From an uncultured Gammaproteobacteria bacterium (GTDB taxonomy: Bacteria; Patescibacteriota; Patescibacteriia; UBA11705; JABHMO01), in assembly GCA_964590105.1 (NCBI GenBank), contig CAZPYM010000001.1, positions 366,172-430,171 on the forward strand: DNA of 64,000 nucleotides, written 5' to 3'. The notes under the pieces are model-generated. The model was given only the letters and a program-made list of their open reading frames with translations, did not search any database and was not told the origin of the DNA. Positions 33,093-36,564 of the stretch are shown piece by piece. Position 1 is the stretch's first letter, and the number at the start of each line of letters is the position of its first letter. Position numbers and translations under genes: made by a program.

Positions 33093-33126
33093 AAATAAAA
33101 AACCCCGACTCACGATGTAAGTCGGG
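33093..33126 (-). terminator. intrinsic terminator downstream of the MVP-like gene
   Basis: The minus-strand hairpin CCCCGACUUACAUCGUGAGUCGGGG is followed by U7. Confidence 0.65.
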
Positions 33127-33152
33127 GATTCTTGCTACATAATCACAGGTTT

Positions 33153-35879
33153 CTACGCGCTAGGCGCGCTTCCACCACTAGATTTTCCGTCAGCCCACTC
33201 CTTGATGAGGGGCAGTAATCCCTGCAAACGAGGGAACTCATTGATAATCCTGGAGGCAATGGCCATGGGGGACTTGCCTTCGAGAATCGACAAATCGGAG
33301 AAGTTGTCAGCCACCAGCTTCGCCACCTCAGTCTGCGTAAGTTGCTCCAGTACTGCCACCAGCTGAGGACTAAAAGCAGTAGCAATCGCCACTGCCGCCT
33401 TTACCTCCGCTTCATGAGCTTCCAGCGCCAGCGCCTGCTGATCCTTGCGGATCTGCAAATCAACGTTACTGTCAGCTGATCTGATCGTTCGACGCCCGTC
33501 GGCAATTGCAGCCTCTTCTTCCAGCTGCTGTTTGGCCGCTTCCATTCTGGCCGCGGTCAAAACAATCTCGGTTTCCTGCCTCTTGGTCTTGATTTCTGCA
33601 TCATGAGCTTGCGCATCACTGTCCACTGTTCTGGAAAATTCCTTCTTTGCCAATTCGATCTGGCGAGCAGCTTCATCTGTGCCCGACAGAAGAGCGGTCT
33701 TTTCCTTCAATCGAGCCAACGAGGCCTCATGCATGGAAACTTCCGTTTCCCTAACCAGATTCAATTCTTCACGTGCGAATGACTGCAGTCGTGCAGTTGT
33801 TTGTACCTGCCTCTCTTTGACTACCAGTTCCAGGCTGGTTTTGACCGCACTGAGTTGCGCATCGCCCAACAACTGCTGAATATTCTGATCCATGATTTGC
33901 AAACCCAGGACTTCTACGTCATAGATCTGCATCATATTCTCAGCAAACTTCATTCCTTCTCTCTCTACGCCGGGAGTCGTGGACTTGGCGCCGAGAATTG
34001 CATTCCGAACAATCTCGGTAACCATTTCCTTGAGTTCGGCGATATGAACTTTCTTGACCGCCGACTTGAGCACGCTTCTCGCGTGATCGCAAAGGAACTT
34101 CACATAGTTCTCGACATCAAACCACTTGTTCGTGTCTTCACCTTCGAAATTGACACGGTAACTGAGCTTGATTTCGCAAGGAACCAAGTCCGTGGTTTCC
34201 ACGTTGACGATATCGCCAACCTTATTTCCGCGCACCCGCAGATACACTGTTCTGACGAGTTTGTCCATAGTCTTCGGCTTCCCGCTGCTCAGGACCATAG
34301 GCTCGAGATTTTCATCGTAAGCCAGGAAAATGGTTTCCGGCCCGACGACCACTCTGCCCTTATCTCCTTTTCCCTTCCCAACGACCTTGACTGCGTAATT
34401 GGTCCACGGACGAACCGTGACAACGCCGTCGTACTTGGAATCAAGGGAAACAGTCCGCGGCGGAGTAAACGTATCCTGGCGATCGAATTGTGCGCCACCG
34501 AATTCTCTTGCAGTAGTTCTGCGGCTGGCCACGCTCGAAGAGCGCGGCTTCACACCGCCGCCCAATTCATCATCAGGGTCAACTAGGCCACCCGCAAGTG
34601 CTTCTGCTTCTGAAAGAGCCTGCACCGAAGCCACCCGTCGACGCAACGCTTCATTGTACTTCCTGGCTTCTTCATTTCCGGGATAGTAAAGCCTTGCTTC
34701 TTCTTCAGAAAGCCTTCGCTTGGTCATCACCTGAAAGCGAGGATCAGCCAGGAACATCTTCGGTCCGAGCACAGTTTCAACCATGCTCGTCCGGCGATCC
34801 AGAACATAGCGCCCTTCACCCTGAGGAATCGCCACGGCAAAATGAATCTCTCTGTCACTGTACTTGATGATGGCGTGTTCACGCCTCGGCATGTACACCT
34901 GATTGGTAATGAAAAGCTCATCGCCAACTGCATGAGCTTTCTTCCCACCTTCAAGCTTTTCTTCATACGCTTCGATCACCTTGACGTGGATGCCTTTCAA
35001 GCTGTCAAGCTCGTAAGCTCGGAACTTTTTCTCTCCGGTATTGCTGGACACAAATTCCTGTGTCGGCTTAGGGAACACAACGTTCGGGCCATACACGTAC
35101 TCCTGCTGGCCATTTTCATCGAGCAAAACCGCGTATTCGAGGTTCTTCAACGTCACAGCCTCACGGACGTAACTCCGAGCCTCATCCTTCTTGACCTTTA
35201 CTCCGGTCGGAGGAATAAAAAAAGCAACATCCGTGCCCTTGATGATAAGACGCTTACCATTGGCCAAGCCCATAGGAACCTGGGAAAATATGCCGCTGAC
35301 TTCAACGGCTTTGTCATCCTGGTCGTTCTCACCACTCACTTTCTTTCCATCTTTCTTTCCATCGACGCCGTCATCTCCAGTATTGTCTCTGTTTTCTTTC
35401 GACGTCTGCTCAACGATTGCTTCTTCCCAGTTCTCTCTGGCAGCTCGAGCGTCGTACACTTCCGCCACGAGATACTGATTGCTGTGAAGCGTATGACCCT
35501 GGACCAAGGTCGCCCTTTGTCCCGGCCACAATGCAAAGGAACAAGGCCCCTTGACATTGATCTTTTTCCCAATCTGCAAAGTCGTCGGCGTTGACTGGTT
35601 ACCTCCCTGATTGGGATTTTTGTTGTCCTTCTCCGGATTGAGAAGTTCGACATACCAACCGTCTGGCGCCACCACGAATTGCATCTTGGCATTGGGTAAT
35701 TCAACCGCAATGAACTTTTTTCCGTCAAACATCATCGGCGAATCATTGGCCGACAGCGTTGCAGTTTTCGGACCGACGTAGATACTGATCTCGCCCTTGG
35801 TCCGATCTTGAATGTATGCGTACTCTCCTGGACCCAGCACTAAATCGCGCTGGTCACGCACGCTCCGCTCTTCTGTCAT
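33153..35879 (-). CDS. major vault protein (MVP) homologue
   Basis: 908 aa. The N-terminus MTEERSVRDQRDLVLGPGEYAYIQDRTKGEISIYVGPKT parallels human MVP (MATEEF..IPPYHYIHVLD...VEVGPKT). It has tandem ~55-aa repeats, an SPFH-like shoulder, a long A/E/Q/K-rich cap-helix and a C-terminal segment with the MVP pattern. G+C is visibly higher than the flanks. There is an AGGAGG RBS 5 nt upstream of the ATG. Confidence 0.8.
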   Translation of the reverse strand: MTEERSVRDQRDLVLGPGEYAYIQDRTKGEISIYVGPKTATLSANDSPMMFDGKKFIAVELPNAKMQFVVAPDGWYVELLNPEKDNKNPNQGGNQSTPTTLQIGKKINVKGPCSFALWPGQRATLVQGHTLHSNQYLVAEVYDARAARENWEEAIVEQTSKENRDNTGDDGVDGKKDGKKVSGENDQDDKAVEVSGIFSQVPMGLANGKRLIIKGTDVAFFIPPTGVKVKKDEARSYVREAVTLKNLEYAVLLDENGQQEYVYGPNVVFPKPTQEFVSSNTGEKKFRAYELDSLKGIHVKVIEAYEEKLEGGKKAHAVGDELFITNQVYMPRREHAIIKYSDREIHFAVAIPQGEGRYVLDRRTSMVETVLGPKMFLADPRFQVMTKRRLSEEEARLYYPGNEEARKYNEALRRRVASVQALSEAEALAGGLVDPDDELGGGVKPRSSSVASRRTTAREFGGAQFDRQDTFTPPRTVSLDSKYDGVVTVRPWTNYAVKVVGKGKGDKGRVVVGPETIFLAYDENLEPMVLSSGKPKTMDKLVRTVYLRVRGNKVGDIVNVETTDLVPCEIKLSYRVNFEGEDTNKWFDVENYVKFLCDHARSVLKSAVKKVHIAELKEMVTEIVRNAILGAKSTTPGVEREGMKFAENMMQIYDVEVLGLQIMDQNIQQLLGDAQLSAVKTSLELVVKERQVQTTARLQSFAREELNLVRETEVSMHEASLARLKEKTALLSGTDEAARQIELAKKEFSRTVDSDAQAHDAEIKTKRQETEIVLTAARMEAAKQQLEEEAAIADGRRTIRSADSNVDLQIRKDQQALALEAHEAEVKAAVAIATAFSPQLVAVLEQLTQTEVAKLVADNFSDLSILEGKSPMAIASRIINEFPRLQGLLPLIKEWADGKSSGGSAPSA

Positions 35880-35966
35880 TCACGCCTCCTGGTTTGTTGT
35901 GGAAACAAGCGACGGCACAGTTGCCTTCGCTTATTTATCATAATTGTCAAACAACAAGATTATAAC

Positions 35967-35995
35967 AATTTACCTAAATAATCGCCATTTGTCAA
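35967..35995 (-). promoter_or_regulatory. candidate promoter for the MVP-like gene (TTGACA-17-TAAATT)
   Basis: On the minus strand, TTGACA lies at 35995-35990, followed by a 17-nt spacer and TAAATT at 35972-35967. Confidence 0.4.
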
Positions 35996-36022
35996 GTCTA
36001 AACAACTTATCTAAAATTAAAC

Positions 36023-36050
36023 AAAAAAGGAAGAACAAATGTATTCTTCC
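36023..36050 (-). terminator. intrinsic terminator after the 139-aa gene
   Basis: The minus-strand hairpin GGAAGAAUACAUUUGUUCUUCC is followed by U6. Confidence 0.6.
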
Positions 36051-36071
36051 TGCATATAATTTTTGCGGCCA

Positions 36072-36491
36072 TTAAGGCGCGCGCTTTCGAAGCATTACGA
36101 ACAATGAATCCGGATTGACCCGGCATCCTTCTGCCTCTATCGCGTTGTTGTCAGGCAAAGAATCTGCCGCTTGTTCCTGGTCAGATTCGTTCGCGGAATC
36201 ATCGCTGTTGGATTCGCTAACAAAAGTCAGCTTCTCCCGCAGACGCACCAAAATGGCGCCCTTGCCTATCTCTTCCGGCTTGGTGTCGCGAATTTCTTCG
36301 CACAGCCACCATTCGCCGTCCTTTGGCAATTCGCCCACCCAGGCCTTGCGCCTGTCCGGAAAATACCCATTAATGAGGACAATCTTGCGCGTGCGCGGAA
36401 TATTACCATTGGCTCCCAAATCACTGAAAATCTTGCCCTTGATCCCCCCATCGGAACCGCAGGTAAAACGCACCTTCAGTAGCTCTTGCAT
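36072..36491 (-). CDS. hypothetical GC-rich 139-aa protein with acidic Ser/Asp-rich C-terminal half, adjacent to MVP
   Basis: An ORF with a good AGGGAG RBS. Its composition matches the MVP gene rather than the host flanks. Confidence 0.55.
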   Translation of the reverse strand: MQELLKVRFTCGSDGGIKGKIFSDLGANGNIPRTRKIVLINGYFPDRRKAWVGELPKDGEWWLCEEIRDTKPEEIGKGAILVRLREKLTFVSESNSDDSANESDQEQAADSLPDNNAIEAEGCRVNPDSLFVMLRKRAP

Positions 36492-36535
36492 GACTATCTC
36501 CCTGATTTTGATTGTTCAATGTCTTATTTTTTTTA

Positions 36536-36564
36536 TTCTATATAATAATCGAATAAATGTCAAT
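36536..36564 (-). promoter_or_regulatory. candidate promoter (TTGACA-17-TAGAAT) for the 139-aa gene
   Basis: On the minus strand, TTGACA lies at 36564-36559 and TAGAAT at 36541-36536. Confidence 0.45.

Follow-up and report, generated by a model that had tools for sequence, protein, structure and literature searches.

The window, a stretch of 64,000 nucleotides from contig CAZPYM010000001.1 of an uncultured bacterium, carries on its minus strand an open reading frame (ORF) of 908 aa at 33153-35879, which an earlier reading of the DNA by itself (the sequence-only reading) had described as a major vault protein (MVP) homologue. The ORF list returned this frame with the N- and C-terminal sequences quoted there. 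The locus was compared with those of the relatives L001, whose MVP is 72% identical to that of the window, and L004 and L008 (44%); L007 was added for lexA and p96. The gene, the parts of its product and the signals around it are as follows.

33153..35879, minus strand: coding sequence of the MVP homologue (100.8 kDa, pI 5.7), from the ORF list, Pfam, phmmer, the family profile and Foldseek.
34239..35879, minus strand: N-terminal beta-repeat region, aa 1-547, from AlphaFold2 secondary structure, predicted local distance difference test (pLDDT) scores and Foldseek.
34239-34424, minus strand: Vault_3 module, the last repeat module, aa 486-547, from Pfam Vault_3.
33888..34226, minus strand: shoulder (SPFH-like alpha/beta) domain, aa 552-664, from PF11978; pLDDT >90.
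33381..33887, minus strand: single long helix, aa 665-833, equivalent of the cap-helix, from DSSP on the model (H665-833) and phmmer.
33156..33380, minus strand: C-terminal helical segment, aa 834-908, at the cap-ring position; helices 839-898, moderate pLDDT.
35967..35995, minus strand: promoter-like TTGACA-17-TAAATT of the MVP gene, read at 35995-35967; same hexamers and spacing in L001, L004 and L008.
35885..35890, minus strand: AGGAGG ribosome-binding site of the MVP gene, from reading the sequence; the ATG lies 5 nt further on.
33093..33127, minus strand: intrinsic terminator of the MVP gene; hairpin 33127-33103 with an 11-bp stem and 7 G-C pairs, then a T run.
35943..35951, minus strand: TTTGACAAT element, candidate operator, ~15 nt downstream of the MVP -10 box.

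The 908-aa protein is almost certainly a member of the MVP family, because Pfam, PDB-chain and fold matches all point to MVP. Pfam PF11978 (MVP_shoulder) was matched by aa 552-664 at E=5.8e-22 (78.4 bits vs a cutoff of 25; profile positions 3-118 of 118) and PF17795 (Vault_3, the position of R9) by aa 486-547 at E=1.3e-10 (41.7 bits vs a cutoff of 28.8). Both matches lie above the gathering cutoffs, while the repeat family PF01505 remained unmatched. When all PDB chains were searched with phmmer, MVP chains were the only matches below E=1e-3 (E~1.5e-14), with aa 485-822 aligned to MVP 456-793 (R9, shoulder and cap-helix); through the helix region the alignment reached MVP residues 647-793. A profile of 97 family members found the PDB MVP chains at 6e-35, and the 64 invariant columns shared by these 97 homologues indicate that the gene is intact and under selection. 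The likeness of the N-terminus to human MVP to which the sequence-only reading had drawn attention (GPGEYAYIQD...VGPKT vs IPPYHYIHVLD...VGPKT) was reproduced by phmmer, but scored only 0.2 bits by itself; MVP repeats 6-7 gave a weak sequence match of 13 bits.

The AlphaFold2 model of the protein (pLDDT 74.7) showed confident beta modules at aa 10-150, 200-420 and 485-547 and an alpha/beta domain at 552-662. As modelled, the repeat region would comprise roughly eight to nine small beta modules, and it carries two variable inserts of low confidence, at aa 160-196 (acidic) and aa 428-479. Foldseek against the PDB ranked full-length MVP chains of the vault cage first (E=4.9e-32 to 1e-25, ~900-1000 aligned columns), the murine MVP R1-R7 crystal structures 3gng/3gf5 second (E~4e-11) and SPFH cage proteins third (E~1e-6), and its alignments to human and rat MVP showed about 16-18% identity. 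The domain order that had been proposed (repeats, shoulder, long helix and helical C-terminus) was recovered, with full-length MVP ahead of SPFH proteins; the N-terminal repeats of ~55 aa that formed part of the proposal are supported by the fold match to the R1-R7 crystals, but their sequence matches are weak and do not extend to PF01505. In the hydropathy profile neither a signal peptide nor an N-terminal anchor or hydrophobic segment was observed in the 908-aa protein, the sole hydrophobic patch being at aa 826-844 (maximum Kyte-Doolittle(19) 1.68 at residue 826), and the protein is predicted to be cytoplasmic.

Just upstream of the shoulder, a GKPK loop at aa 533-536 aligns to human 503-GRPK-506 of the 'keyhole loop' for nicotinamide adenine dinucleotide (NAD+; PMC12280208), and its P535 and K536 are invariant in the 97 sequences. 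The NAD+/ADP-ribose pocket of human MVP consists of 13 residues, R437, R504, K506, R507, P508, H509, R511, L517, D521, F522, W545, P565 and K573 (PMC12280208). The phmmer alignment mapped R504 to K534, K506 to K536 and D521 to N552, and showed changes of R507 to T, P508 to M, H509 to D, R511 to V, L517 to R, F522 to K and W545 to V. Conservation of the pocket as a whole was rejected for the 908-aa protein, in which only the GxPK loop core is retained; nucleotide binding does not follow from this alignment.

The family proved to be large. At least 1,811 matches were obtained among 90%-identity clusters, most of them bacterial, 800-900 aa long and ~40% identical; an exhaustive search gave 1,064 clusters at 50% identity (558 of them at E<=1e-30), and many members are already labelled 'major vault protein' by the Joint Genome Institute (JGI). 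Bacterial homologues were reported from Myxococcales, Cytophagales, Cyanobacteria and Herpetosiphon in 2013 (Daly et al., PMC3762200) and 2019 (Sokolskyi, bioRxiv 10.1101/872010), and from gut Clostridia and phages in 2023 (bioRxiv 10.1101/2023.11.10.566534). The description of MVP-like genes as rare and scattered in bacteria therefore does not hold, and the 908-aa protein adds one member to a known, sizeable bacterial family. The closest relatives among the matches listed are bacterial, at 40-72% identity vs ~17% to human and rat MVP, in agreement with the sequence-only reading that the gene is bacterial and no eukaryotic contaminant. Homologues also occur in metagenome-assembled genomes (MAGs) labelled Falkowbacteria, Parcubacteria/Paceibacterota (one on a 187-kb contig), Uhrbacteria, Saccharibacteria and Vogelbacteria, and a Ca. 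Falkowbacteria MAG protein in NCBI is 44% identical to the 908-aa protein. MVP in the candidate phyla radiation (CPR) is not unique to this window, and some of the short MAG contigs with a CPR-labelled MVP may be mis-binned. The literature searched held no report linking MVP with CPR/Patescibacteria and no experimental characterisation of a prokaryotic MVP. In a neighbour-joining (NJ) distance tree without support values, the window clade was monophyletic and lay inside bacterial diversity; other CPR MVPs were its deep neighbours, and the CPR MVPs did not clearly form one clade.

The MVP gene appears to be a transcription unit by itself, with a sigma-70-type promoter and a terminator of its own. 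The promoter, ribosome-binding site and terminator that had been read off the sequence were all found in place, and promoter and terminator are kept in the relatives. Single matches of either kind are at chance level (10 promoter-like sites in the region vs 5.3+/-2.2 by chance, and 7 terminator-like sites vs 5.0+/-2.2); the calls are credible because the signals recur around MVP in three diverged relatives. A hairpin and T run equivalent to the MVP terminator also follow MVP in L001 and L004, and a terminator occupies the matching position around the MVP gene across L001, L004 and L008. The TTTGACAAT element, with TTGA[C/A]AA invariant, is kept in six promoters, those of MVP in the window, L001, L004 and L008 and those of the helicase gene in L001 and L008; the conserved stretch shared by the MVP and helicase promoters can also be given as TTTGA(C/A)AAT. 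TTTGACAAT occurs twice in the window, which is a chance-level count, and conservation is what marks it as a candidate operator common to the MVP and helicase genes. A 21-codon upstream ORF (ATGATAAATAAG...) at 35877-35942 (minus strand) begins directly after TTTGACAAT; read by eye, its TGA stop overlaps the MVP ATG (ATGA) and it has no obvious ribosome-binding site.

The surroundings of the gene are marked by the following features.

38008..38082, minus strand: tRNA-Glu(CTC), upstream boundary of a variable block, from ARAGORN and Rfam.
36072..36491, minus strand: p139, an acidic-tailed orphan of 139 aa from the ORF list, with its own promoter (36563-36535) and its own terminator (36051-36028).
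32546..33000, minus strand: p54-p96 pair, downstream boundary of the variable block, travelling with lexA; promoter-like site at 33057-33029.
31669-32271: lexA.
28786-29997: dinB.
32295-32310 (plus strand) and 32328-32343 (minus strand): candidate LexA boxes.

Along the window the order runs murF - tRNA-Glu(CTC) - methyltransferase - p114 - p139 - MVP - p54 - p96 - lexA - PDDEXK_3 - p155 - p81 - dinB - hydrogenase genes, so that the position beside lexA and dinB given in the sequence-only reading was confirmed. In L001, L004 and L008 the order is tRNA-Glu - p139-like - helicase - HD - MVP - p54 - p96 - (bAvd/IVP) - lexA - p155 - p81 - dinB. The tRNA-Glu(CTC) gene has its counterpart at the corresponding place in L008; at the start of L001 it is present as a truncated copy. 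On the other side, p54 (32833-33000, minus strand, 55 aa, not in the ORF list) and p96 (32546-32836, minus strand, 96 aa) overlap by stop and start (ATGA); both lie between MVP and lexA in L001 (63% and 75% identity), and p96 is also present in L004, L008 and L007. Neither gave a significant family match, p96 showing weak Drt5 matches in PADLOC only. Since the same locus carries MVP in relatives in which the protein is only 44% identical, MVP is, as judged from this synteny, a long-standing resident of the variable segment between tRNA-Glu and p54-p96-lexA. L001, L004 and L008 carry a helicase-HD pair that the window has lost; against curated models the helicase scored as Hef-like (E~1e-78) and the HD gene as a YhaM-like OB+HD nuclease (E~1e-35), neither of them reaching the equivalog cutoff. 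In L001 the N-terminus of MVP is split off at 3680-3904, where a 56-aa ORF and an 'intergenic' stretch match aa 1-48 of the window protein, indicating a frameshift or stop, either in a pseudogene or by assembly error.

Between lexA and dinB lie two conserved proteins without a family assignment, p155 (30657-31124, minus strand, 155 aa, starting MCAGITF) and p81 (30055-30300, minus strand, 81 aa). p155 is ~70% identical in L001, L004 and L008 and p81 ~70% in L001 and L004; both are possible lineage-specific members of a damage-response cluster. The PDDEXK_3 gene between lexA and p155 (ORF 31192-31590, 132 aa, G+C 0.306) is flanked by 47-nt inverted repeats that are 85% complementary (31127-31173 and 31621-31667). 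It is absent from this place in L001, L004 and L008, which have 23S_rRNA_IVP/bAvd genes upstream of lexA, and it looks like a small inserted cassette.

A chimeric join, which had been named as a finding that would count against the locus, is excluded, because an identical MVP with identical neighbours on both sides was found in independent assemblies (Logan SRR8437217, ENA ERZ27248895) and because one public contig of 563,767 bp carries all six of the six window proteins looked up, MVP included. A contig of this length fits a small genome. Synteny with a Ca. Falkowbacteria-labelled MAG and 60-85% protein identity to it suggest that the host is probably a Falkowbacteria-like CPR bacterium.

In five genomes the -10 region of the (bAvd-)lexA promoter stands between paired GTTC-N7-GTTC / GAAC-N7-GAAC boxes. 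They lie at the positions listed above in the window and at 7219-7233 in L001, 5470-5519 in L004, 11679-11728 in L008 and 10308-10357 in L007. The GTTC-N7-GTTC pair is a candidate for the LexA operator of this lineage, a direct-repeat operator being of the type described for Alphaproteobacteria. Control of MVP by the SOS response was rejected, since the candidate operator was found only upstream of lexA, and the proposed tie of MVP to an SOS module fell with it. Perfect copies of the DnaA-box TTATCCACA occur five times in the window vs 0.53 expected, a count reached in 0 of 100 shuffles (48404-48412, 48479-48487, 48581-48589, 7978-7986 and 32356-32364). One copy precedes the lexA -35 region by a short distance, a position at which L001 and L004 keep it too; three lie in a 380-bp gap between a 143-aa ORF (47887-48318, minus strand) and an 814-aa ORF. 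Cumulative GC skew showed no turn at this cluster, and a replication origin is therefore not indicated.

Both MVP and p139 stand out by composition. The MVP gene has a G+C content of 0.517 and the 139-aa gene of 0.529, against a window mean of 0.409 and 0.31-0.46 in neighbouring genes; the observation that both are about half G+C was right, but the background of roughly a third given with it was too low. In G+C at third codon positions (GC3), MVP (0.573) and p139 (0.607) deviate more strongly than any other of the 73 ORFs (mean 0.408, sd 0.065). High-expression codon bias was rejected as the cause, because the shift is shared by C/T, G/A and four-fold sites and absent from ribosomal-protein genes; translational selection is hence not the explanation. 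The excess could reflect import of a p139-MVP block from a G+C-richer donor into a tRNA-adjacent hotspot, recent or recurrent, possibly by repeated recombination in conserved flanks. A donor might be sought in the high-G+C Myxococcota that dominate the MVP family; the block adjoins tRNA-Glu and varies in gene content between relatives, and the CPR MVPs lack a clear common clade in the tree. The divergence pattern fits as well: the flanks are about equidistant between the window, L001 and L004/L008 (61-85%; LexA 83-85%, p96 68-75%, p155 61-72%, DinB 64-66%), whereas L001 and L004/L008 share 39-48% identity over the p139-helicase-HD-MVP block (helicase and HD genes 46-48%) and MVP is 72% identical between window and L001. 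Either the block is evolving at a much higher and uneven rate, or recombination within the conserved flanks has replaced it. Import is nevertheless a doubtful explanation. Every syntenic relative has MVP at this locus, with promoter and terminator kept, and the window clade is monophyletic; the GC3 of MVP exceeds that of its own genome by +0.16 to +0.23 in five of five lineages examined, so that the offset follows each host's background, unlike a single recent import, and a single ancient one should have ameliorated at this divergence. The block showed no integrase, nothing resembling an att copy of the tRNA-Glu 3' end and no flanking repeat of note, repeats there being at chance level. The MVP gene is not a recent import, since it occupies the same locus in diverged lineages and the excess recurs in each, which also makes the horizontal acquisition of a compact island, as put forward in the sequence-only reading, doubtful. 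The reading as an integrated genomic island was set aside on mixed signs: tRNA adjacency, G+C deviation and variable content were seen, integrase and att repeats were not. The G+C-rich block lies between two terminator tails (33090-33105 and 36590-36605) that share a 16-nt T-rich match, but this match is of low complexity.

The sequence-only reading had also taken MVP and p139 for a possible encapsulin-like shell and its cargo or accessory protein; the two genes are adjacent on one strand and share the G+C enrichment, and a p139-like domain does recur near MVP in L001 and L008. A terminator (36051-36028) and a separate promoter stand between the two genes, however, and the partial homologues in L001 and L008, the only ones seen, lie upstream of the helicase gene and are separated from MVP by helicase and HD; they have not kept the acidic tail. 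p139 is absent from ~80 other MVP loci, those of other CPR lineages included. It had no match in Pfam, NCBIfam, PADLOC or PHROGs, a search of 5.8 billion proteins returned only the query itself, and its AlphaFold2 model from the single sequence was weak (pLDDT 58.6). p139 is best described from these data as a separately transcribed, lineage-restricted orphan whose membership in an MVP system is unsupported, and a cargo role is very improbable. Clustering of the ORFs within +/-6 kb of MVP at 85 loci yielded Myxococcota Ser/Thr kinases and lineage-restricted clusters only, and a universal partner gene was rejected. Membership in a defence system was rejected as well: MVP, p139 and p54 had no PADLOC match and the window proteins scanned had no PHROGs match; the relatives' helicase and HD genes showed only generic helicase and Cas3-HD similarity, and Hef-like and YhaM-like are the better description of them. 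The 814-aa ORF (48698-51142, plus strand), on the strand opposite to nearly all others, is the third GC3 outlier (0.531) and lies directly downstream of the DnaA-box cluster. It was rejected as an MVP associate, with no Pfam, PADLOC, PHROGs or PDB match and no occurrence at other MVP loci. Rather than as a free vault shell, the 908-aa protein might act at the membrane as an SPFH-type scaffold comparable to flotillin, HflK/C or stomatin, to which the MVP repeats would have been added as an extension. Shoulder and long helix do match SPFH cage proteins, at E~1e-6, several family members have a Band_7 Pfam match, and the hydrophobic patch at aa 826-844 would fit such a reading; eukaryotic vaults are reported, in the title of a 2026 paper, to associate with membranes. 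The 908-aa protein itself has no Band_7 (PF01145) match at E<=1 and lacks both a signal peptide and an N-terminal anchor; its shoulder comes after ~550 aa of MVP-type repeats, and in E-value full-length MVP outranks SPFH by ~25 orders of magnitude. A canonical SPFH/Band_7 protein that stands alone is moreover already encoded in the window, ~6 kb away from MVP (42032-42802, minus strand, 256 aa, E=3.5e-41), from which it follows that the genome has both a classical SPFH scaffold and an MVP homologue. A membrane scaffold is therefore an improbable reading of the protein.

The reading we favour, and hold to be reasonably probable, is that of a bacterial-type MVP, transcribed alone and long resident in a Falkowbacteria-like CPR lineage, which forms a cytoplasmic homo-oligomeric cage of vault or SPFH type. 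Eukaryotic MVP alone forms a 78-mer shell (D39), and SPFH relatives form cages; by analogy with these, the 908-aa protein may well form a closed cage. Many copies would pack side by side, as homology suggests, with the ~170-residue helices bundling into a cap barrel and the repeats forming the wall. This would yield a cytoplasmic cage, hollow and independent of any dedicated partner gene; across the 85 MVP loci no universal neighbour was seen. A number of observations weigh against this interpretation. PF01505 Vault repeats gave no Pfam match at E<=1 in the 908-aa protein, and the inter-domain geometry of the model differs from that of the assembled protomer, which keeps the global TM-scores to MVP low (0.27-0.30). 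By alignment, the GxPK loop core is all that is kept of the human NAD+ pocket. No vault RNA was found in the 64 kb window, where Rfam finds one tRNA only, and no TEP1-, PARP-, TROVE- or vWA-type partner was found among the window proteins scanned or the relatives' annotated neighbours. No prokaryotic MVP particle is reported in the literature searched, and a vault of eukaryotic size would be very large for an ultra-small cell. A role in nucleic-acid transactions or DNA damage, finally, is a weak and speculative hint taken from the neighbourhood (the Hef-like helicase and YhaM-like nuclease of the relatives, LexA and Pol IV). The link to repair genes is adjacency in one lineage only, and GTTC-N7-GTTC, with up to 3 mismatches, was not found near MVP in the window, L001, L004, L007 and L008 or near dinB.

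A bolder version of the cage would join these elements: ultra-small CPR cells would build vault-like cages from an MVP that lies in a tRNA-adjacent, fast-evolving block of distinct composition beside lexA/dinB, is co-regulated with the Hef-like helicase and the YhaM-like nuclease (TTGACA-17-TAAnnT plus TTTGACAAT) and serves the handling of damaged or foreign nucleic acid. This is a long shot; if true, it would foreshadow the PARP4/TEP1 link of the eukaryotic vault. Apart from it, the value of the finding lies in the host range, the candidate gene and the G+C and divergence pattern. That a stand-alone MVP gene is kept in several CPR lineages, whose genomes are very small, argues for a use of the protein that does not depend on eukaryotic partners, and a compact gene of this kind is a simple candidate for expression and structural work. 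What is unusual about the MVP of the window is only the lasting G+C enrichment and the discordant divergence of its block.

Among known systems, encapsulin operons have a cargo that is co-transcribed and co-occurs with the shell, neither of which holds for p139 and MVP. The SPFH/Band-7 cages (HflK/C 7VHQ, prohibitin 8RRH, flotillin 9BQ2, stomatin 9OH9) share with the 908-aa protein an SPFH-like alpha/beta domain and a long helix, which in these cages bundles into a closed roof; the 908-aa protein differs in having neither a membrane anchor nor a Band_7 match and in its ~550 aa of N-terminal MVP repeats. With eukaryotic MVP (rat and human; PDB 4V60, 9BW5, 9BW6) it has domain order and fold in common, as well as the GxPK loop before the shoulder. 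It differs in two extra variable inserts, in a structural-alignment identity of only ~16-18% and in most residues of the NAD+ pocket (such as H509 to D, R511 to V and W545 to V). Its helix of ~169 aa is slightly longer than the rat cap-helix. The MVPs of gut Caudoviricetes phages and prophages belong to the same bacterial-type clade, which shows that the gene can move on mobile elements (bioRxiv 10.1101/2023.11.10.566534), whereas the window protein has no PHROGs match and its block no phage genes, integrase or att site. Nearest in kind are the MVPs of gliding bacteria (Microscilla marina A1ZGE7, Saprospira grandis H6L4P8, Corallococcus coralloides H8MNI3), which are of the same family and architecture and of similar length; that of Microscilla marina (P0113) matches 96% of the query at 40% identity and shows the same Vault_3 and MVP_shoulder pattern. 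A correlation of bacterial MVP with gliding motility has been published (PMC3762200; bioRxiv 10.1101/872010), and the MVP of the window breaks this association, its host being a small-genome, probably CPR, bacterium instead of a large-genome gliding heterotroph. The window gene is further set apart from the genes of the gliding bacteria by its lineage-specific locus between tRNA-Glu and lexA and by its lasting G+C enrichment.

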